64,000 nt of DNA, taken from the NCBI GenBank assembly GCA_000830315.1, contig CP010426.1, positions 588,663 to 652,662 of the forward strand. The letters run 5' to 3'. Below the pieces are notes generated by a model. That model was not told the DNA's origin. It worked only from the letters and a program-made list of their open reading frames with translations, and did not search any database. This stretch comes from an archaeon GW2011_AR20. Its GTDB lineage: Archaea; Nanobdellota; Nanobdellia; SCGC-AAA011-G17; GW2011-AR20. This document shows positions 2,944-64,000 of the stretch, in pieces. Each line of letters begins with the position of its first letter. Position 1 is the first letter of the stretch. The position numbers and the translations under genes are program-made.

Positions 2944-2995
2944 AAAACCACGAACGACAGCTTTATAAATATTAAATTTTATCAATCAAAACTTA

Positions 2996-3109
2996 GGACG
3001 ACCATAGTGGCTTGGATACACCCGATCCCATTCGAACTCGGAAGTTAAGCAAGCCTACGTTCCTGGTTGTACTGCACTCGGTTGTGGGAAGCCAGGAAAG
3101 TTGTCCGCC
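2996..3109 (+). rRNA. rrf: 5S ribosomal RNA
   Basis: GC-rich island of about 114 nt containing the conserved 5S core CCCGATCCCATTCGAACTCGGAAGTTAAGC. The terminal helix GGACGAC / GTTGTCC pairs. It lies in an intergenic region. Confidence 0.8.
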
Positions 3110-4516: not shown

Positions 4517-5104
4517 TTATAATTTCTCAATATAACCTCTGCATTTTGAATTAAACAATTTTTCAAGAGTTTCAATGTCATTTTTGCAGTGTTCTTTTAT
4601 TTTTTCTAAATTATTTTCTTTCCACAGCCTTTCAACATCTTTTCCAGTAATCCCTTCATCAATAAATTCAATATTATTTAATTTGGCCAGAACTTTCAGG
4701 TTCGGATTTGTAAAAACATTCTGGGAAAATATGATCATAGTATCAAGATGATTGCTTTTAAGCATATTCCAGTGGTTTAAATTAATCTCCTTGCTTACCC
4801 TGAGGTTATTTATCATGCTTCTTATAATTATAAAAGGAATATCGAATTTGTAGCCATTATGAGTGACAATTACAGAATTGTTTGTTTTCATGAAATCCCA
4901 GAATTGAGTTAAAATCTCTTTCTCATCTCCAGTTAATAGCCTGACTTCATTATTATATTTCAATCCTATGACAATTATTCTGCTATAATGGGGATTTAAG
5001 CTTCTTGCAGCGTCAGTCAATTTTTTATCCATCAGGTATCTCATTATGAATTCGTCATTTATTTCTAATGGTACTGTTTCAATATCCAAAAACAAATATT
5101 CCAT
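4517..5104 (-). CDS. RNase H-fold 3'-5' exonuclease-like protein (DEDD type, PolB-exonuclease-like)
   Basis: The N-terminal FLDIETV acidic motif and a later HNGYKFD motif resemble DEDDy exonuclease motifs I/II. Confidence 0.5.
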   Translation of the reverse strand: MEYLFLDIETVPLEINDEFIMRYLMDKKLTDAARSLNPHYSRIIVIGLKYNNEVRLLTGDEKEILTQFWDFMKTNNSVIVTHNGYKFDIPFIIIRSMINNLRVSKEINLNHWNMLKSNHLDTMIIFSQNVFTNPNLKVLAKLNNIEFIDEGITGKDVERLWKENNLEKIKEHCKNDIETLEKLFNSKCRGYIEKL

Positions 5105-5154
5105 GGCAATATTAATCTAATAAGGTATATAAACCTTACATTATTTCCAGTTCT

Positions 5155-5544
5155 ATGGCTGATAAAACAGAGGAAGTTTGGAAAAAGAAATTAAGCAAGG
5201 AGCAATATCATGTTTTGAGGGAGAAAGGGACTGAAATGCCTTTTACAGGAAAGCTGCTTTTTAATAAAGATAAAGGGGTTTATACTTGTACAGCGTGCGG
5301 AAATGAGATTTTCTCTTCAGATGCAAAATTTGAATCAGGAACAGGCTGGCCCAGTTTCTTTCGCCCGATTTCAAAAGATGCTGTAGAAAAAAAGATAGAT
5401 GCAAGCAATGGAATTATAAGAACAGAGATAATATGCAGGAAATGCAAATCTCATCTCGGGCATGTTTTTGACGACGGTCCAAAACCAACTGGATTAAGAT
5501 ATTGCCTGAATTCTGTTTGTTTAGATTTTAAAAAGAAAAAATGA
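5155..5544 (+). CDS. msrB: Peptide-methionine (R)-S-oxide reductase MsrB
   Basis: Two CxxC pairs (CTAC..., CRKC) and the RYC active-site signature near the C-terminus (GLRYCLNS). 129 aa. Confidence 0.85.
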
Positions 5545-6285: not shown

Positions 6286-6405
6286 TGCTCCGTCCGGGAT
6301 TTGAACCCGGGTCTCGGCCTTTCTTCTCTTTGCTTTATTTTGCTGAAGCTTTTTTTTAAAACTTCCTCGAAAGGGCCGAATCCTTGGCCGCTAGACTAAC
6401 GGAGC
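6286..6405 (-). tRNA. tRNA-Glu (anticodon UUC) with an intron of about 45 nt after position 37
   Basis: Manual fold. Acceptor GCTCCGT/ACGGAGC, anticodon stem CGGCC/GGCCG, loop CTTTCG, T-arm CCGGG-TTCAAAT-CCCGG, discriminator A. Confidence 0.75.
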
Positions 6406-6409
6406 AATG

Positions 6410-6515
6410 TGGGCCTGAGCGGATTTGAACCGCCGACCACGCGTGCTCTTAGCTTACTAATGCACCTGGCATCGTCATATAAGACGCGTGCTCTACCAGG
6501 CTAAGCTACAGGCCC
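6410..6515 (-). tRNA. tRNA-Ile-like with anticodon UAU and an intron of about 32 nt
   Basis: Acceptor GGGCCTG/CAGGCCC, Ile-like D-arm GTAGCTTAGCCTGGTAGAGC, anticodon stem CGCGT/ACGCG, loop CTTATA followed by the intron. The loop nucleotides CTTA pair with TAAG at the intron 3' end, which is a canonical h' helix. It lies 4 nt from tRNA-Glu. Confidence 0.65.
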
Positions 6516-16242: not shown

Positions 16243-18831
16243 ATGAAAACCAAAGAGCATAAACCCGGCATGGAGTTGGTTAAAAAATATGAAAAAAGAC
16301 TTCAGTTAATAAGGGATGAGAGCTCTAAAATTATTGTCGGCCAGGAGCAGGTGATTAATTCTTTATTGCGCGCTTTATTATGCGATGGTCATGTTTTACT
16401 TGAGGGAATCCCAGGAATTGCAAAGACGTTAATCGTACGTACGTTAGCTAAAGTTACAGGATGCGATTACTCAAGAATACAGTTTACAGCTGATTTACTG
16501 CCGACAGATCTGGTTGGATTAACAACTTATATCAAGGAAAAAAATGAATTTCGGGTAAACAAGGGTCCTGTATTTGCAAATTTTGTAATAGCAGATGAAA
16601 TAAACAGGAGTCCTCCAAAATGCGTTTTAGGGGATACAGAAATTTTAACAGCGAACGGGTCTTTAATTAATATTGAGAACATATTCAGCGAATATAGGGG
16701 AGATTTAGCTTCAAGGGAAGATAATGAAGAATTTTACACCTTAAATAAAGAGATTTATATAATGTCTTTTGACCCCAAAGATAAGAAAATAAAACCTAAA
16801 AAAGTTAAATATCTTTATAGACAATTAACCAACCAGCCTTATTATGAAATTATATTAAAATCCGGCAGAAGCATTAAAACCTCGAATATACACCCTTTCT
16901 TTAGTATAAAAGACGGATATATTTATAATTTGAGGGCTAATGAGTTAAAAATTAATGATTGCGTTTTGACTCCAAAAAACATTAGATTGGAAACTAATGA
17001 TAAGATAGAGTATAACGAGGGGGTGATGAAAGAGGTTAAGGTTGCCAAAGAAGAAATTTTTAAAAGGCAGAAGCTATACAATGAAGTTCAAAAATTAAAG
17101 AATAAAAAAATAAATTATATAAAGAATACCCTCGGTTTAGATAACAAATATGCTAATCTAGCTAAGTCATACCTTAAAAGAAAACCCAAGTACATTGATA
17201 TGAAAACAGATGAAAACTCTTTTATAATGTTGCCAAAAAATTATGGTGTTATAAATAAAATTAATATGCCTTCAGAAACTAATAAAGAGCTCATGCACTT
17301 CTTTGCTTTATTGATTTCAGAGGGAAATCAAAAAAATGGAAAATTTTATTTGTCGATGAGGGATAAAAATTTAGTTGAGTATTTTATAAAATTATTAAAA
17401 GAATTATTTAATATAAATACAAGATATTACATCGACAAAAGAAATGGCCAGTATAGGGTATCCTTAAGTTCCAAGCCATTAGAGAAATTAATTTATGCAA
17501 TGAATTATAAAATTAATTCAAATGCCAAAAATAAAGATATTCCAAATTTTATCATGAAAGCGAGTAATGAAAATGTTAAGGAATTTTTAAAAATGTATTA
17601 TGAAGGTGATGGCGGTGTTAGCAGGGATTGCGTAAAAGTCACAAGCAAAAGCAAAATGGTAGCAAATAAACTTAGCTATTTATTGCTAAGATTTGGTTTA
17701 ATAGCCAGAATAAGTTATGAATACAGCAAAAACAATGAAGGGTTTGGTGATTATTATTATAACCTGAGGTTTTACGGGAATGACTTAAATCTTTTTAGAG
17801 AAAAAATGGGGTTTATTTCTGAGGATAAAAATAGCAAACTAGAACAATGCTGCGGGAATGTATCCCTAAATAAAAATGATACTATCCCATTTATCCATTC
17901 TAAAATAAGAGAATTGAGAAAAAATAATAATATTACACATAGAGAATTTTATGAAGCAACTAGAATGCATGCTCATAATATTGAAAATCCTAATAACAGA
18001 TTTGGAATAAGTAGGTATTCTCTAAATTTAATTTGTAATTCATTAAATGGTTTTGAAGAGATTAAGGAAATTATTTTGGGAGATTTTTACTGTGATTATG
18101 TTAAATCAATTAATATCATCTATCCGGAAAAAGATTATTACTTATATGACTTTACAATTGAAGATACACATTCTTTTGTAGCGGGTTTTGGAGGAATAAT
18201 TTCACATAATACCCAATCAGCTTTATTAGAGGCAATGCAGGAACGCCAGGTAACTATTGGAACTAAAACTTATCCTTTGCCTGATCCATTTTTTGTCATG
18301 GCAACTCAGAATCCCATTGAAAGCTCAGGTGTTTACCCGTTGCCAGAAGCTCAGATTGACAGGTTTTTATTCAAGACAAAAATTGTTTATCCAAAACTGA
18401 ATGAAGAAAATGAAATTCTTAAGAAAAATATAACATTGCAGAGATTTGAAGAGATTAAACTAGAGAAAGTGACAAATCAAAACGAATTGATTCAGATGCA
18501 GGACTTCGTAAAGAAGATTTACTTGAGCAAGGAAGTTGAGAATTATGTCATCAGATTAGTTGATGCTACAAGAAATCCGGGCAAATATAAGATTAATTCT
18601 GGTAAATATATTGAATGGGGTGCATCTCCAAGAGGAAGCATTGGCTTGTATATAGCGGGAAAGGCAGAAGCATTAATTCAGGGAAGCAATTTTGTTACCC
18701 CCGTTAATATTAAAACTGTTGCGCATGATGTTTTGCGCCACAGGTTATTACTGAATTATGAAGGGCAGGCTGAGAACATAAAAACAGATGATATCATAAC
18801 CGAAGTTTTGGAAAAAGTTCCTATTCCTTAA
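16243..18831 (+). CDS. MoxR-family AAA+ ATPase interrupted by a 530-aa intein
   Basis: Extein: Walker A GIPGIAKT, Walker B/sensor block ADEINRSPPK | TQSALLEAMQE. This block is contiguous in uninterrupted MoxR proteins. Confidence 0.9.
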   Translation: MKTKEHKPGMELVKKYEKRLQLIRDESSKIIVGQEQVINSLLRALLCDGHVLLEGIPGIAKTLIVRTLAKVTGCDYSRIQFTADLLPTDLVGLTTYIKEKNEFRVNKGPVFANFVIADEINRSPPKCVLGDTEILTANGSLINIENIFSEYRGDLASREDNEEFYTLNKEIYIMSFDPKDKKIKPKKVKYLYRQLTNQPYYEIILKSGRSIKTSNIHPFFSIKDGYIYNLRANELKINDCVLTPKNIRLETNDKIEYNEGVMKEVKVAKEEIFKRQKLYNEVQKLKNKKINYIKNTLGLDNKYANLAKSYLKRKPKYIDMKTDENSFIMLPKNYGVINKINMPSETNKELMHFFALLISEGNQKNGKFYLSMRDKNLVEYFIKLLKELFNINTRYYIDKRNGQYRVSLSSKPLEKLIYAMNYKINSNAKNKDIPNFIMKASNENVKEFLKMYYEGDGGVSRDCVKVTSKSKMVANKLSYLLLRFGLIARISYEYSKNNEGFGDYYYNLRFYGNDLNLFREKMGFISEDKNSKLEQCCGNVSLNKNDTIPFIHSKIRELRKNNNITHREFYEATRMHAHNIENPNNRFGISRYSLNLICNSLNGFEEIKEIILGDFYCDYVKSINIIYPEKDYYLYDFTIEDTHSFVAGFGGIISHNTQSALLEAMQERQVTIGTKTYPLPDPFFVMATQNPIESSGVYPLPEAQIDRFLFKTKIVYPKLNEENEILKKNITLQRFEEIKLEKVTNQNELIQMQDFVKKIYLSKEVENYVIRLVDATRNPGKYKINSGKYIEWGASPRGSIGLYIAGKAEALIQGSNFVTPVNIKTVAHDVLRHRLLLNYEGQAENIKTDDIITEVLEKVPIP
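16621..18210 (+). other. Intein with a LAGLIDADG homing endonuclease domain inside moxR
   Basis: Begins with Cys (CVLGDTEI), ends in SHN followed by Thr +1. Internal motifs FALLISEGN and YYEGDGG. The flanking extein sequence is seamless. Confidence 0.8.
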
Positions 18832-29458: not shown

Positions 29459-29545
29459 GGGGCTATGGTCTAGCTTGGCTATGATATACGCTTAGGGACA
29501 AAAGCTGAAAAGCGTATGACCCCAGTTCAAATCTGGGTAGCCCCA
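29459..29545 (+). tRNA. Intron-containing tRNA of unresolved isotype (Val-like D-arm). Anticodon is GAA if the 13-nt intron lies after position 33, or AGG if it is canonical 37/38.
   Basis: Acceptor GGGGCTA/TAGCCCC + A. D-arm GTCT-AGCTTGGCTA-TGAT. Eight-bp continuous helix ATACGCTT/AAGCGTAT around a 15-nt loop. T-arm CCCAG-TTCAAAT-CTGGG. Confidence 0.55.
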
Positions 29546-30910: not shown

Positions 30911-31018
30911 TGCAGTAGCCGGGATTTGAACCCGGGTCGATGCCTTTTTGCTTTTGATTAAACTTTTTCTCAAAAGTTTATTGGCAAGGCACCATACTAA
31001 CCACTATACTACTACTGC
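30911..31018 (-). tRNA. tRNA-Gly (anticodon GCC) with an intron of about 36 nt
   Basis: Acceptor GCAGTAG/CTACTGC + A, anticodon stem GTGCC/GGCAT, loop TTGCCA | intron, T-arm CCGGG-TTCAAAT-CCCGG. Confidence 0.7.
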
Positions 31019-31649: not shown

Positions 31650-31719
31650 TTTTGTAAATTTTTTGAGAAATTTTAATCAATTTATTAGTTTAAAAGCCTT
31701 TTTATTTTTGCAAAATTAG

Positions 31720-31792
31720 TGGGCCTGCCAGGACTCGAACCTGGGACCTTCACGGTGTAAACGTGACGTTATAGCCGCTAAACTACAAGCCC
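31720..31792 (-). tRNA. tRNA-Val (anticodon UAC), no intron
   Basis: Acceptor GGGCTTG/CAGGCCC + A, anticodon stem TCACG/CGTGA, loop TTTACAC, T-arm CCAGG-TTCGAGT-CCTGG. Confidence 0.8.
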
Positions 31793-58652: not shown

Positions 58653-59501
58653 TTGATGAAACATACTTTATTCATAACAATTACATTGGCATTATTATTT
58701 TTGGCGTCTCACGCAATGGGCCTGGTTATAATCGATGAATATCTGCCAAAAACATTATCAACAGGAGAAATTGTTGAAAGAGAACTGCCTTTGAACATTG
58801 AAAGACCCGAGGTAAGGGAAGAAACTTCATTTATTCCAATATTTTTTATAATATTATTTGCAACAATAATCGCACTGCTGTTTATCAAATTCCAGTTATT
58901 CAAATTATGGAAACTCTGGTTTTTTATTTCAATAGCATTAACATTAATAATTGCGTTCTCTGCATTCATTAATCAGGTTTATGCAATCATTTTGGGAATT
59001 GTTCTGGCTTTAATGAAATTATTTAAGCCAAGCACAATAATGAACAATTTAATCGAGATATTCATTTACGGCGGATTAGCTGCCATATTTGTTCCAATAT
59101 TTAATCTGCTCTCAATAAGCATTTTGTTGATATTAATTTCAATATATGATGCCTATTCTGTCCTGAAAAGCAAGCACATGATCAAACTGGCTAAATTTCA
59201 GACAAAAGCAAAAGTATTTACTGGCTTGAGCATTCCATACCAATTTAAGAAAGAGAAAAGAAAGATTGAATTTACAACAGCCATTCTTGGAGGGGGCGAT
59301 ATTGGATTCACATTGTTTTTTTCAGGCGTAATCTTAAAAGAATTTAATTTGCTTGCTGCGTTAATAGTTTCATTCGTTACAATGCTTTCATTGCTTGTTT
59401 TATTGTTTTACGGAAAAAAAGGAAAATTCTATCCTGCAATGCCCATATTGACAATGGGATGTTTCTTAGGCTATTTGACAGTTAAATTTATATTATTTTA
59501 A
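58653..59501 (+). CDS. Presenilin/signal-peptide-peptidase-like intramembrane aspartyl protease (A22 family)
   Basis: Multi-TM protein with YD (ISIYDAYSV) and GxGD (LGGGDIGF) motifs in adjacent TM segments, and a PAL-like YPAMP near the C-terminus. Confidence 0.55.
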   Translation: MMKHTLFITITLALLFLASHAMGLVIIDEYLPKTLSTGEIVERELPLNIERPEVREETSFIPIFFIILFATIIALLFIKFQLFKLWKLWFFISIALTLIIAFSAFINQVYAIILGIVLALMKLFKPSTIMNNLIEIFIYGGLAAIFVPIFNLLSISILLILISIYDAYSVLKSKHMIKLAKFQTKAKVFTGLSIPYQFKKEKRKIEFTTAILGGGDIGFTLFFSGVILKEFNLLAALIVSFVTMLSLLVLLFYGKKGKFYPAMPILTMGCFLGYLTVKFILF

Positions 59502-59960: not shown

Positions 59961-62900
59961 TTATCTTATTCTAATAGCTTCCAAATTCTTCGGGGCATTT
60001 GTCTCTATCCTGAACATCTTATGCAAATTACTTGCTAAATCAAGGCAATTAGAATTATCCCCATGCAATAAAATTATTCTTTTCGGTTTTGGATTTAAAT
60101 GCCTGACAAATGATATCAATCTTTCTCTCGTGCTATGTCCTGTAAATCCCCTGATGGCTGCAATCTCCATCTTCAGAGAAATCTGTTTTCCGTCCAAGTT
60201 GAATTCTTTTTCGCCTTCCATTACTCTTCTTCCTAAACTTCCCCTGCCCAGGTAACTTGAAAATATCAATGAGTTTTTTGGATTATCTGATAATTCCTTG
60301 AAATATTCTACTGATGCTCCTCCAACCAGCATTCCGGAAGTCGCTAGAATAATGCAGGGACCAGATTGAATAACTTCCTGCATCTCCTGCCTTGATCCGA
60401 CCCTTTTAAAAACTTCATTCAAGAACGGATTTTGGTCTTTATGAAAAACCATCTTTCTTATGTTTGAATTAAAGAAATCAGGATATGCTGTATGTATTGC
60501 TGTAATATCCCAAACTGTTCCCTGCACGTAAACCGGAATTTTATCAAGCATTCCATTCCTGATCATTTTATCAATTATGACCATTATTTCCTGAGCTCTT
60601 CCTGTTCCCAAGACAGGCATCAAAACCTTTCCCCCTCTTTCAATTGTTTTTTTGATTGTATCAACTAAAATATCTTCTGCCTCTCTTCTGCTGGGGTAAT
60701 TTTCATTGCTTCCGCCGTAAGTTGCTTCCATTATCATTGTCTCTAATCTTGAGAATCTTGTCATAGCCGCGCTTAATAAATTACTTGTCTCATAATTCAT
60801 GTCCCCTGTATAAAGAATATTATGCAGCCCGTTTCCAATATTCAAATGAACCATTGCGCTTCCCAATGTATGTCCTGCATCATAAAATGTAATTCTAATG
60901 TCGGGGGTAATGTCAGTAACCTCATCATATTCTAATGTTATGGAATGCTTGACCATCTCTTTTATATCTGCACTTCCAAAAATTACCTTGCGGTTTTCTT
61001 TCTGGCTTACACTTATGTAATCAAGTGCCATTAAAGCTGCTATATCAAGTCCAGGCTCTGTATAATACACCGGTCCTTTAAAACCCATTTTATACAAGTA
61101 AGGGACAAATGCAGAGTTATGAACAACAACCCCATTAGCTACGAAATTTTGATTAGGTTCTACTTCTATATCAACCAAATAAGGATAAGGATTTTCTTTT
61201 TTCTCTATTTTTGTAATCTTTTGCCATATAACAGGCATTTCAACTAATTTTTTTAATTTATTAATATTATCTTGAGTTTTTAAGATTTTTATTTCTATCA
61301 GTTCATTTAATTTCTTATTCATCATTTCATAATATTTATCTTTTATATCAAAAACTTCCCTATTTTGAACGATTCCATAAGTAGTTTCAATCATTTGAGC
61401 AATATCTTTTCTAGGTAAAGAAATAGATTTTCTTTTTTTAGATATAGAAGAATTATTTTTCTCTTTTAAGTAAGTTAATCTTTCTTCAAGAAGTTCAATT
61501 AATTTATTAATGGTATTTTTATCTGCATAACTATTTCCTTTTCTTCTATACCGATCTAATAAAGCCGCTGGAAAATCGCTTATTTTAAATTCTTTATGGA
61601 CTTTTCCTAAAAATCCCGCATCCATTAAAATTTCTTTTAATTTAATTGAGGAAATAGGAATTATTTCTTTTAAATTCGTATCTCTCAATTTATTAACCAA
61701 GTTTTCTAATTTTAATTTTTTATCAATATGATTAAATCCAATTAAATTATAATACCTTTTAATAGAGTATGAAGAAGCTATATTAACAACCTTGTTTTTA
61801 TAATTTATATTGGATAATATCCCTAGTGTTGATAACATATGTTGTAGTGTTTCTAAAATTTTTTCTTGAGACGATGAAATTGATATGCAATTGTTTACAG
61901 AGCCTTCTGCATCGGCAATTCCTCTTAAAAATGCCCTTATAATATTATTTGAGCTAAAGATAATCTTTTCTGAGATATCTCTTTTTTTATTTTTTCCTAA
62001 AATTCCCTTAAAATTATCTTCAAAAAACTTCACAATGCCCGCATTATTTATTTCAATTATATGAGCATTTTTAGATTTATCCGGATGGTGTTTTAAAATA
62101 GGATCATAATTGAATATATTTTTTATTATATTTTTATATTCTTTTAAACAATCTGTTGACTGGTCAGTTATCCTAAATGTTCTTTCGCTTGCTAGTCCGC
62201 CGTCTCCAGTCATATATCCGGCCACTTGAGCCAATTCTTCATTAATATATTTAGGATAAACTGTCTTATTTATATTATACTTAGCCGCAAAATCATTAAA
62301 ATCAATTCCATAGAATCCTAAAATCTCTTTTAAAGTATTAATGTAAATATGCTTGTTCTTATTTTCCAGGTCAGAAATCAAATTTGTATGTTTTTTCAAA
62401 TGACTTACAATATAATCTTGAGTCCAATTCCTCTCTTTTCTTATAATTTTTAGTTTTTCAACTGCTTCTTGAGGTAATTCCAATCTTTCAAAATATTCCG
62501 GTTCTTTAAGTTCAATTCTTTTAAACTCATTTTCCTGTCCCATGTAACAAGGAATAACCATTCCTTCTCTTAAATTTTCAGCAGTGACTTCTTTAATTTC
62601 TAAATCTTTATCAATAACAAAAAATTTATGGTTTCTAGAAGATCCAATTGTATAATAAGATGTTTTAATTTTATAAATTTCTTTATGCTTTGTATTTTTC
62701 TTATAATTACATTTACCAATAACTCTCTTTCCAGTCTTCCAATCAATTCCAATTAATTTATCCCCTACTTTTATATCATCTATGGGCTTTATAGTTCCAT
62801 TTTCCAAATAAACGGGTGTATTTGGTGGTAAACAATGGTCAGCGTGCGCATGCGTAACAATAATAGCATCTAATTTGTTAATGTCAAATTCAGGGGCGTC

Positions 62901-63566
62901 CAGCATTGGATAAGAATCCTCTGGGTTATCTGCAGCAACATCTACTCCGCAGTCAAGCAATATTCTTGATTCAGGCGTCTGCAATAACAGGCATGATCTT
63001 CCTACCTGCCTTCCTGCCCCAAGAAAACTGATTCTGATCCATTCGTCTTTTTTCTCGTTTGTCCATCCGCCGTAAATTCTTTCACCGACCTTATTCAGGA
63101 ATTTTTTTCTGTAATCATTATGCTCGTATAAAACATCCCTTATTTTGTCTGTGATCTGGGATTTAATCGGGGGAGTTCTCCTGACTAAAGGAATCCAGAA
63201 TGTTTTTCTCTTTATTTCTTTTAATATATCCCCTGATTTTCCAATAGCTAACCCGGGCTTGCTGGCTTCTATTATAACCTTGCTTCTTGAAATATCAAAT
63301 ATGACGTTCGCCAAGCCAGCTTCTTCAGGAATTAATTTTTTAATCTCATTTTCTGCTTTTTCCTCTTCCATTAATAAGCTTTCATGAGGCCTTAACTCAA
63401 TTCTTTTTTTAACAGCTTCTACAATTGTTTTAATAACCTCGGAATTGTCCAAGAAAAATTCCTTGCTCTTGGTATAAAGAATAATATTTGCTCCTTCAAA
63501 TCCAGATTCAACTATGTTTGCGTTCTCTGGTACATACTTTAATACTTCTTTCAAAATTTCATTCAT
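59961..63566 (-). CDS. aCPSF1/FttA (KH-KH-metallo-beta-lactamase-beta-CASP RNA endonuclease) interrupted by an intein of about 573 aa
   Basis: N-terminal KH domains. The MBL motif THAHADH is immediately followed by the intein. The C-extein carries the beta-CASP and MBL motifs (GHTLGSA, ATYGG, LLHGD). Confidence 0.9.
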   Translation of the reverse strand: MNEILKEVLKYVPENANIVESGFEGANIILYTKSKEFFLDNSEVIKTIVEAVKKRIELRPHESLLMEEEKAENEIKKLIPEEAGLANVIFDISRSKVIIEASKPGLAIGKSGDILKEIKRKTFWIPLVRRTPPIKSQITDKIRDVLYEHNDYRKKFLNKVGERIYGGWTNEKKDEWIRISFLGAGRQVGRSCLLLQTPESRILLDCGVDVAADNPEDSYPMLDAPEFDINKLDAIIVTHAHADHCLPPNTPVYLENGTIKPIDDIKVGDKLIGIDWKTGKRVIGKCNYKKNTKHKEIYKIKTSYYTIGSSRNHKFFVIDKDLEIKEVTAENLREGMVIPCYMGQENEFKRIELKEPEYFERLELPQEAVEKLKIIRKERNWTQDYIVSHLKKHTNLISDLENKNKHIYINTLKEILGFYGIDFNDFAAKYNINKTVYPKYINEELAQVAGYMTGDGGLASERTFRITDQSTDCLKEYKNIIKNIFNYDPILKHHPDKSKNAHIIEINNAGIVKFFEDNFKGILGKNKKRDISEKIIFSSNNIIRAFLRGIADAEGSVNNCISISSSQEKILETLQHMLSTLGILSNINYKNKVVNIASSYSIKRYYNLIGFNHIDKKLKLENLVNKLRDTNLKEIIPISSIKLKEILMDAGFLGKVHKEFKISDFPAALLDRYRRKGNSYADKNTINKLIELLEERLTYLKEKNNSSISKKRKSISLPRKDIAQMIETTYGIVQNREVFDIKDKYYEMMNKKLNELIEIKILKTQDNINKLKKLVEMPVIWQKITKIEKKENPYPYLVDIEVEPNQNFVANGVVVHNSAFVPYLYKMGFKGPVYYTEPGLDIAALMALDYISVSQKENRKVIFGSADIKEMVKHSITLEYDEVTDITPDIRITFYDAGHTLGSAMVHLNIGNGLHNILYTGDMNYETSNLLSAAMTRFSRLETMIMEATYGGSNENYPSRREAEDILVDTIKKTIERGGKVLMPVLGTGRAQEIMVIIDKMIRNGMLDKIPVYVQGTVWDITAIHTAYPDFFNSNIRKMVFHKDQNPFLNEVFKRVGSRQEMQEVIQSGPCIILATSGMLVGGASVEYFKELSDNPKNSLIFSSYLGRGSLGRRVMEGEKEFNLDGKQISLKMEIAAIRGFTGHSTRERLISFVRHLNPKPKRIILLHGDNSNCLDLASNLHKMFRIETNAPKNLEAIRIR
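61116..62834 (-). other. Intein with a LAGLIDADG-type homing endonuclease inside aCPSF1
   Basis: Starts with Cys right after HAHADH and ends in VVHN with Ser +1. Internal motifs VAGYMTGDGG and LRGIADAEGS. Coordinates are from frame arithmetic, +/-3 nt. Confidence 0.75.
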
Positions 63567-63587: not shown

Positions 63588-64000
63588 CTATAATGTAAAT
63601 TTAATTTCCTTTTCCAATACTTTCTTAGCCCCGTCTTTTGTTATTGTCACGACATCATAACCTGAACCAGATGCAACGTCCCTTTGTAATGCTGAGTTTA
63701 ACGCCTTTAATGCTAATTTAACCCCATCATCCACATTAATATCCTTGTTATAACCAGACTCGAGAACTCCCATCGCAAATTCAGAGCCGGATCCTTCGCA
63801 GTAATATTCATCCTGCAATGATACGCTTCCATCCACGCCAATGTCATATAAATGATATCCTTTGTCATCTCTTCCAGCAAGCATGAATCCAACTATTCCT
63901 GGAATAGTACTAAACTTTCTGATATTTCCATAAACTAATGAGCCTACTAGATTAGCAACTTCTTTTGTGCTGGGCTTTTTACCCCTTCTTATTGTATCCA
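63588..64000 (-). CDS. psmB: Proteasome beta subunit. The N-terminal part is truncated by the window edge.
   Basis: C-terminal region AMGVLESGY...LALKALNSALQRDVASGSGYDVVTITKDG. The reading frame stays open to the window end. Confidence 0.75.
   Translation of the reverse strand, partial: DTIRRGKKPSTKEVANLVGSLVYGNIRKFSTIPGIVGFMLAGRDDKGYHLYDIGVDGSVSLQDEYYCEGSGSEFAMGVLESGYNKDINVDDGVKLALKALNSALQRDVASGSGYDVVTITKDGAKKVLEKEIKFTL

Follow-up and report, generated by a model that had tools for sequence, protein, structure and literature searches.

The gene considered here lies on the minus strand of a 64,000-nucleotide stretch of contig CP010426.1 from the archaeon GW2011_AR20 (the whole stretch is called the window in what follows) and encodes a protein identified as the archaeal transcription-termination nuclease aCPSF1/FttA, interrupted at its catalytic site by an intein. 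It occupies 59961..63566 (-) as a single open reading frame (ORF) of 1201 codons plus stop, with a predicted precursor of 137.7 kDa in which three parts can be distinguished. The N-extein (residues 1-244; 62835..63566, -) holds a pair of KH domains and the beginning of the metallo-beta-lactamase (MBL) domain, and ends at motif 2 of this domain, H239-A-H-A-D-H244. The intein (573 residues, precursor residues 245-817; 61116..62834, -), of 66.7 kDa and with an isoelectric point of 9.3, runs from Cys1 to His572-Asn573 and is followed by Ser+1. This serine, the +1 nucleophile, is the first residue of the C-extein (residues 818-1201 and the stop; 59961..61115, -), which comprises the remaining MBL domain, the beta-CASP domain and the RMMBL domain.

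Both junctions can be read in the DNA as well as in the protein. At the N-terminal one, ACG CAT GCG CAC GCT GAC CAT / TGT TTA CCA encodes THAHADH/CLP, with THAHADH being residues 238-244 of the precursor and Cys245 the first residue of the insert. At the C-terminal one, GTT GTT CAT AAC / TCT GCA TTT encodes VVHN/SAF, where VVHN ends at residue 817 and SAFVPY comes next. An earlier note on this DNA had placed at 61116..62834 an element of about 573 residues, with its first cysteine right behind THAHADH and ending in VVHN/SAFVPY, and the ORF together with the junction codons bears out these limits to the base. The note left the strand unstated; it is the minus strand that encodes the element, the plus-strand translation of the same interval being riddled with stops. 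An open frame of 573 codons at 25.7% GC has a chance probability of about 5e-27, given the base composition, and the other two coding-strand frames of the insert contain 62 and 84 stops.

Judged by its sequence, the host protein is aCPSF1/FttA (arCOG00543) of a Woesearchaeota-like archaeon of the DPANN group. The precursor scores 822.5 bits against the NCBIfam equivalog TIGR03675 (aCPSF1), for a cut-off of 580.2, and its Pfam domains (KH_TffA, KH_2, Lactamase_B, Beta-Casp and RMMBL) give the architecture KH-KH-MBL-betaCASP-RMMBL. When residues 245-817 are removed, the spliced extein of 628 residues (predicted 71.1 kDa) aligns end to end with the aCPSF1 from M. thermautotrophicus (PDB code: 2ycb; E 4.8e-209), gapless over the junction (ldaiivthahadhSafvpylykmg in the extein, ldaviithahldhSgflpylyhyg in 2ycb). 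The junction is also free of gaps in the comparison with FttA from T. kodakarensis (PDB code: 9bct) and with the structures from P. horikoshii (PDB code: 3af5) and M. mazei (PDB code: 2xr1). MBL motifs 1-4 and beta-CASP motifs A-C are all present in the spliced extein (LLDCG, HAHADH, DAGH, TGD, EATYG, GFTGH and LLHGD). The earlier note had named aCPSF1/FttA as host and MBL motif 2 as the site of insertion, which the TIGR03675 match, the domain set and these seven motifs confirm. It had also proposed a comparison with aCPSF1 of other archaea; against the four solved archaeal structures, the extein is reconstituted, and the gapless junction alignment to 2ycb and 9bct shows that the flanks rebuild a contiguous MBL domain. 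Moreover, Ser+1 is the native aCPSF1 residue behind motif 2 (HLDHS in 2ycb), and among 68 matches to the motif in intein-free related loci, the residue behind HxHxDH is Cys in 32, Ser in 24 and Thr in 4, with a few cases of Ala, Met, Ile or Gly.

The insert itself is, by its motifs, a canonical and complete class-1 intein with a nested LAGLIDADG homing endonuclease. The Pfam family Intein_splicing matches residues 8-573 with 75 bits (cut-off 35.8), and Hint, Hom_end and Hom_end_hint match too; NCBIfam intein_Cterm reaches 24.8 bits (cut-off 15.6), and the match to intein_Nterm covers residues 1-73. The N-terminal half of the Hint domain (intein residues 1 to ~100; 62535..62834, -) contains C1 of block A and S66-R-N-H69 of block B, and shows in the structural model the corresponding beta-strand pattern. 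The C-terminal part (61116..61238, -), where the intein_Cterm match falls, carries block F (LVD555IEV..NQNFVANG) and block G (VVH572N573), and aligns to the PabCDC21-1 and PhoCDC21-1 inteins. All the residues of class-1 splicing are present, namely C1 (block A), H69 (block B), D555 (block F), H572-N573 (block G) and Ser+1 (TCT). In an alignment with 18-19 related inteins, of the kind that had been suggested as a check in the earlier note, the terminal splicing residues are invariant; the complete set of invariant positions is C1, G13, H69, G206, G210, D211, G212, Y233, G305, D308, A309, L334, D555, H572 and N573, and E310 is conserved in at least 90% of the sequences. Two minor substitutions count against this assignment, since the second His position of block F is occupied by Gln (NQNF) and block B has Ser for Thr (SRNH in place of TxxH). 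However, both Gln in block F and Ser in block B are known from working inteins.

The search of the PDB by sequence with the intein alone gave marginal matches (E 0.01 or weaker), so a comparison of folds was needed. An AlphaFold2 model of the intein, built on the alignment of related inteins, has a mean predicted local distance difference test score (pLDDT) of 90.5, with no segment below 50, and a predicted template modelling score (pTM) of 0.81. In this model the insert has a Hint fold, and the best Foldseek matches in the PDB are the inteins PI-PfuI (1.4e-17), TliVMA (4.8e-17) and PI-TkoII (7.9e-17). Further matches include PhoVMA and PI-SceI, followed by I-Tsp061I, I-DmoI, WhiA, many mini-inteins and the Hint domains of Hedgehog proteins.

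The endonuclease is a double-motif LAGLIDADG core (intein residues ~196-385; 61680..62249, -), matched by Hom_end and, in two stretches, by LAGLIDADG_3 (58.7 bits, cut-off 22.5). The two LAGLIDADG-like blocks listed in the earlier note are located at residues 204-213 (VAGYMTGDGG) and 302-312 (FLRGIADAEGS), and each motif ends in a catalytic acid, D211 in VAGYMTGDG and E310 in LRGIADAEG. The model shows over residues 199-382 the pseudo-dimeric alpha-beta-beta-alpha-beta-beta-alpha order, with Foldseek matches to I-DmoI, I-Tsp061I and the N-terminal domain of WhiA. The homing-endonuclease domain claimed in that note is thus confirmed by the Pfam match, by both acids and by the predicted fold, and the enzyme is probably active.

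Two further modules flank this core, about which the earlier note was silent, as it was about the allelic family at this site and the comparative evidence for mobility. Between the N-terminal half of Hint and the endonuclease lies an accessory domain of the XRE/Cro-type helix-turn-helix (HTH) class (intein residues ~120-187; 62274..62477, -), matched by HTH_19 and HTH_3. On the isolated intein HTH_19 scores 32.9 bits (cut-off 30.2), and HTH_3 reaches up to 49.5 bits in allelic inteins. Five helices are found in the model (residues 122-134, 139-146, 152-159, 165-175 and 179-185). The region behind the endonuclease (intein residues ~386-532; 61239..61679, -) is helical and contains a weaker second HTH-like stretch (residues ~464-495, KKRKSISLPRKDIAQMIETTYGIVQNREVF) and a long helix (residues 500-532) that returns to Hint. 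With a local hidden Markov model made from the first HTH, a counterpart of this second stretch is matched in the corresponding place of P0005, P0007, P0028, P0137 and P0160, all of them allelic inteins described below. In TliVMA and PI-TkoII, the accessory domain stands at this same place. In TliVMA and PI-TkoII, accessory domains, some of them HTH-like, were proposed to modulate target recognition (PMC8966425). By analogy with these domains and with the DNA-recognition region of PI-SceI, the HTH modules would be extra DNA-binding surfaces that aid recognition of the homing site (PMC8966425).

Taken together, we hold it very probable that the insert is a genuine class-1 intein, with a probably active LAGLIDADG endonuclease, inserted in frame between His244 of HxHxDH and the conserved Ser of aCPSF1/FttA. 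The residues that are conserved, and what is established about the chemistry of class-1 splicing, lead us to infer the following sequence of events. The 137.7-kDa precursor would be translated with a split MBL domain and would be catalytically incompetent. An N-S acyl shift at Cys1, aided by His69 of block B and Asp555 of block F, would generate a thioester, and the attack of Ser+1 on it would lead to the branched intermediate. Then, cyclisation of Asn573, assisted by His572, would free the 66.7-kDa intein, and an O-N shift would leave the native bond HAHADH-SAFVPY in the active 71.1-kDa FttA, with THAHADHSAFVPYLYK as the predicted junction peptide. The free intein would in turn recognise the uninterrupted aCPSF1 allele through its LAGLIDADG core (D211/E310), the XRE HTH and the post-endonuclease region, and would cut it across the insertion point; recombinational repair from the intein-bearing copy would then introduce the intein along with a few adjoining codons. 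In this scheme, the splicing reaction, the cutting of DNA and the binding of DNA by the HTH modules are predictions.

The earlier note had stated that splicing would be obligatory for the host protein, and this is sound as an inference, since 573 residues come between the zinc ligands D243 and H244 and the remainder of the MBL domain. For M. maripaludis, aCPSF1 is an essential protein, and exchanging two histidines of motif 2 (H243A/H246A) abolishes its catalytic activity (PMC7515710). Because the insert splits the MBL domain at the zinc site, splicing would be a precondition for nuclease activity.

The intein belongs to a family that recurs at the same point of aCPSF1. An exhaustive HMMER search in 1.84 billion representative proteins gave 1196 relatives at E <=0.001, and among the top 150 matches at least 10 aCPSF1 proteins carry an intein at this position (HxHxDH/C to HN/S or HN/C), namely P0005, P0006, P0007, P0008, P0009, P0018, P0028, P0047, P0137 and P0160. 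These allelic inteins come from Woesearchaeota, Aenigmarchaeota and Asgard archaea. The XRE HTH is kept in P0005, P0006, P0007, P0028, P0137 and P0160, and is lost in P0008 and P0047. Three of the aCPSF1 proteins with database names are MBI2148584.1 (Woesearchaeota; NCBI name 'MBL fold metallo-hydrolase'), MBI4018360.1 (Aenigmarchaeota; 'MBL fold metallo-hydrolase, partial') and MHA2172592.1 (Ca. Kariarchaeaceae, Asgard; 'beta-CASP ribonuclease aCPSF1' in NCBI and 'predicted metal-dependent RNase/transcriptional regulator with XRE-family HTH domain' in IMG), and none of the three is annotated as containing an intein. The window's precursor itself was not found in a collection of 15 billion proteins, and full-text literature searches (open-access papers and bioRxiv) returned no paper in which aCPSF1/FttA, or any beta-CASP protein, is described with an intein. 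A related intein is apparently also present in P0134 (856 residues), a shorter beta-CASP/MBL protein, at another site, near extein position ~509 in the numbering of the window; the HxHxDH motif of this protein is uninterrupted (HAHLDHSGAAP).

Beyond this site, the inteins of a sizeable family right behind the GGQ motif of the archaeal release factor aRF1 (P0012, P0015, P0017, P0019, P0027, P0042 and P0074) have the same HintN-XRE HTH-LAGLIDADG-HintC layout, and in related MCM inteins the HTH stands behind the endonuclease. Since this layout is found in inteins of unrelated hosts (aRF1, and MCM with the HTH elsewhere), the HTH belongs to the mobile element and not to the host.

The intein looks like a mobile element. 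Patchy presence, incongruence between intein and extein, and co-conversion, the population and phylogenetic signature of homing, are all seen in the sequences compared. Regarding the first, when the GTDB species genomes were scanned with the spliced extein, the best 80 aCPSF1 loci were all contiguous genes of ~628 residues without intein (80/80), and there were ~355 further relatives. Nearly all of these 80 are metagenome-assembled genomes labelled Woesearchaeota, Nanoarchaeota/Nanoarchaeia or 'archaeon', with many 'uncultured Methanosarcinales' records of similar identity among them. The four closest orthologues (L002-L005) belong to this set, and their exteins are 85-88% identical to that of the window. 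Scanned with the intein itself, the GTDB species genomes gave no match, which indicates that the window's intein is not among the GTDB species representatives. Conversely, an intact orthologue of 1201 residues with an intein at the same site is present in a metagenome contig (Ga0209515_10001710, hereafter L001), with an identity to the window of 78% in the intein and of 78-79% in the exteins. A search of the IMG/VR viral contigs with the intein alignment gave distant LAGLIDADG relatives only (21-40% identity, partial matches), and no viral vector was evident among them.

The exteins fall into two clades, A (the window and L002-L005) and B (L001, P0001 and L006), and each of them has members with the intein and members without it. 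In clade A it is found in the window and not in L002-L005, whereas in clade B it is found in L001 and P0001 and not in L006, whose empty site reads ...ACACATGCACATGCCGATCAT/ACTGCGTTTATTCC... The incongruence is seen with P0001 (SRR3989344_1763294), where an intein 99% identical to that of the window over 295 residues is joined to a clade-B N-extein that is 74% identical to the window's. As for co-conversion, 59 extein sites are diagnostic of the clades; the window agrees with clade A at 52 of these and with clade B at 4, and these 4 include 240 and 242, the diagnostic sites nearest to the insertion at 244/245 (THAHADH in the window, THPHT/VDH in its own clade). By a rough count, the chance of such a placement is ~0.004. 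The donor-clade state of residues 240 and 242 suggests that a clade-B donor left a short tract of co-conversion. The composition also differs between the element and its host, with 25.7% GC in the intein and 37.2% in the extein, and 17% and 34%, respectively, for GC at third codon positions (GC3). In the intein-free alleles L002, L005, L007 and L010, Ala occupies the would-be +1 position; because Ala+1 cannot support splicing unless its codon is co-converted, these alleles may be refractory to productive invasion.

Several observations weigh against the mobility of the intein or limit its evidence. P0001 is a read-derived fragment, known as a protein only, and the contrast between 99% and 74% identity may be due in part to a chimeric assembly whose switch point lies within the intein; the fragment differs from the window at 3 of the first 23 intein residues and is near-identical thereafter. 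At residues ~540-560 it also leaves the frame just before the second LAGLIDADG motif and ends (compare ...IIFSSKNIRNTTTYVINTRDIIQYKL with ...IIFSSNNIIRAFLRGIADAEGS), which would be either a real deletion or frameshift, that is, endonuclease decay, or an assembly error. The donor-like residues 240 and 242 could come from selection for splicing-compatible extein residues instead of from co-conversion. Finally, the intein-free tally covers the best 80 loci, and intein-bearing alleles are possible among the other ~355, a point that touches the frequency of the intein and not the conclusion.

In the first alternative, the intein is competent in splicing and its endonuclease is inactive or decaying, so that the element would be a fixed and vertically inherited passenger late in the homing cycle that has ceased to be mobile. 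The identity between the window and L001, nearly equal in intein and exteins, is compatible with a long co-residence; the apparent truncation or frameshift of P0001 before the second motif and the loss of the HTH module in the allelic P0008 and P0047 point in the same direction. The substitution rates bear on both sides. For the window compared with L001, the ratio of nonsynonymous to synonymous substitutions (dN/dS) stands at 0.12 over the whole intein and at 0.077 for the exteins. By region of the intein, it is 0.10 in the LAGLIDADG core, 0.058 in the HTH region, 0.255 in the post-endonuclease region and 0.02 in the C-terminal part of Hint. These values are rough, given that dS is saturated (1.1-2.0). 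The post-endonuclease region is thus the least constrained, as decay would have it. However, the value of the LAGLIDADG core indicates that the endonuclease is under purifying selection, the HTH is more constrained still, and both acids, D211 and E310, are intact and conserved. Moreover, neither the four nearest relatives at species level nor L006 of the other clade has the intein, the near-identical intein of P0001 sits within a divergent extein, and the junction has the signature expected of co-conversion. A decaying endonuclease is for these reasons unlikely, although it is the alternative that survives best next to a mobile intein with a probably active endonuclease.

A second alternative is that the intein was co-opted, with splicing as a conditional switch (responding to Zn2+, redox or another signal) on active FttA, with the free intein as a DNA-binding regulator, or with both. 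The points in its favour are circumstantial. Cys1 adjoins four zinc ligands (H239, H241, D243 and H244), and Zn2+ inhibits several inteins by binding at the splice junction. The HTH is the most constrained part not involved in splicing (dN/dS 0.058, with the saturation given above), and the host protein regulates the 3' ends of transcripts globally (PMC7515710). On the other hand, the scattered occurrence in close relatives speaks against the adoption of an essential function, inteins of unrelated hosts have the same HintN-HTH-LAGLIDADG-HintC layout, as in aRF1 after GGQ, with MCM inteins bearing the HTH elsewhere, and an HTH that travels with the element fits an accessory role in target recognition (PMC8966425). 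Co-option is in consequence very improbable. Its boldest version would have metal- or redox-responsive splicing gate the supply of active FttA, and hence genome-wide termination, in archaea of reduced genome, while the excised double-HTH intein may moonlight as a DNA-binding regulator; this we consider a long shot.

The last alternative, an insert that does not splice (an error of assembly, an insertion that makes the gene a pseudogene, or a domain lodged permanently in a non-functional paralogue of aCPSF1), could appeal to splicing being predicted and to a sequence that probably comes from a metagenome assembly, but it deserves almost no credence and is effectively refuted by the comparative data: the 573 in-frame codons, the exact Cys1 and HisAsn/Ser boundaries with all the splicing residues, a predicted fold that is that of solved inteins, an architecture found independently in the L001 contig and in at least 10 database proteins from several phyla, and exteins under strong purifying selection with all their catalytic motifs intact.

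With respect to the surroundings of the gene, 63588..63884 (-) contains the 3' part of the gene immediately upstream, which is probably the proteasome beta subunit gene (psmB) by its sequence. The gene of this subunit is the usual neighbour of aCPSF1 in archaea. The same upstream neighbour is found in L001 as a complete ORF of 210 residues (4616..5248) directly before the aCPSF1 gene. Downstream, a gene for a membrane protease of the presenilin/signal peptide peptidase (SPP) type (58653..59501, +) lies 460 bp from aCPSF1 in the window; in L001 (8875..13597 region) the same gene is ~3.9 kb away from aCPSF1, with three extra ORFs between, one of which reads as subtilisin-like.

Elsewhere in the window, a second intein of 530 residues (16621..18210), with a LAGLIDADG_3 domain, interrupts the gene of a MoxR-like AAA_3 ATPase (16243..18831, +; 862 residues) at the junctions DEINRSPPK/CVLGDT and GIISHN/TQSALLEA. 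That it is a recent duplicate of the aCPSF1 intein was considered and rejected, the two being only 24% identical. Rfam gives five tRNA genes in the window and ARAGORN one (tRNA-Val, 31719..31792). The other Rfam calls are 6286..6405, 6410..6515 and 30911..31018 (all -) and 29459..29545 (+); three of them are 106-120 nt long. ARAGORN missed these calls, which are probably intron-containing archaeal tRNA genes. A 5S rRNA gene (2994..3109, +) stands alone, with no match to 16S or 23S rRNA elsewhere in the 64 kb.

Regarding its significance, the intein is of the ordinary selfish type and no new mechanism is revealed; its host protein and site are undescribed in the searchable literature, and unannotated examples are already public. 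With it, the general archaeal transcription-termination factor joins the essential information-processing proteins that are invaded by inteins at a catalytic motif, the site being here the zinc-binding HxHxDH. This accords with the rule that homing endonucleases are directed to whatever DNA is most conserved. A correction of annotation also follows, as proteins of ~1150-1220 residues labelled 'MBL fold metallo-hydrolase' or 'RNase/XRE-family regulator' are intein-containing aCPSF1. Moreover, a near-identical intein in divergent exteins, together with a short signature of co-conversion, can be used to mark where uncultured DPANN lineages have recently exchanged DNA. Finally, the HintN-HTH-LAGLIDADG-HTH-like-HintC layout, common to the inteins of aRF1 at GGQ, offers natural material for the hypothesis that accessory domains serve in the retargeting of inteins.

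A comparison with inteins of solved structure places the element next to PI-PfuI (PDB code: 1dq3), TliVMA and PhoVMA (PDB codes: 7qss and 7qst) and PI-TkoII (PDB code: 2cw7), which are its best structural matches (Foldseek E 1e-17 to 1e-11) with a sequence identity of only 12-17%. As in the window's intein, in these proteins the Hint domain is split by a double-motif LAGLIDADG endonuclease, and there are additional DNA-binding accessory domains that are partly HTH-like. However, their hosts are ribonucleotide reductase, V-ATPase and DNA polymerase, whereas the host in the window is aCPSF1. The intein of the window, with 573 residues, is larger than most of this group, and it differs also in having a profile-detectable XRE/Cro HTH before the endonuclease, the second HTH-like region being in the canonical position after it. 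A LAGLIDADG fold together with an HTH is likewise seen in WhiA, which is among the Foldseek matches (8dy9_I and 3hyi). In this case, the protein is a domesticated and catalytically inactive transcription factor, with no Hint domain and with its HTH at the C terminus.

The comparison with the allelic aCPSF1 inteins shows the same insertion point, an identity of 25-78% and, in most of them, the HintN-HTH-LAGLIDADG-HintC order; the window's intein is distinct in sequence from these copies, with its closest complete relative at 78% identity, and P0008 and P0047 differ by being without the HTH. The closest non-allelic relatives are the aRF1 inteins behind GGQ (P0012, P0015, P0017, P0019 and P0027), with 22-34% identity and E values of 1e-34 to 1e-27. 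These inteins, as yet uncharacterised, have another host and another homing site. Nonetheless, their domains follow the order seen in the intein of aCPSF1, XRE HTH included, and their place is likewise a catalytic motif of an essential information-processing protein.

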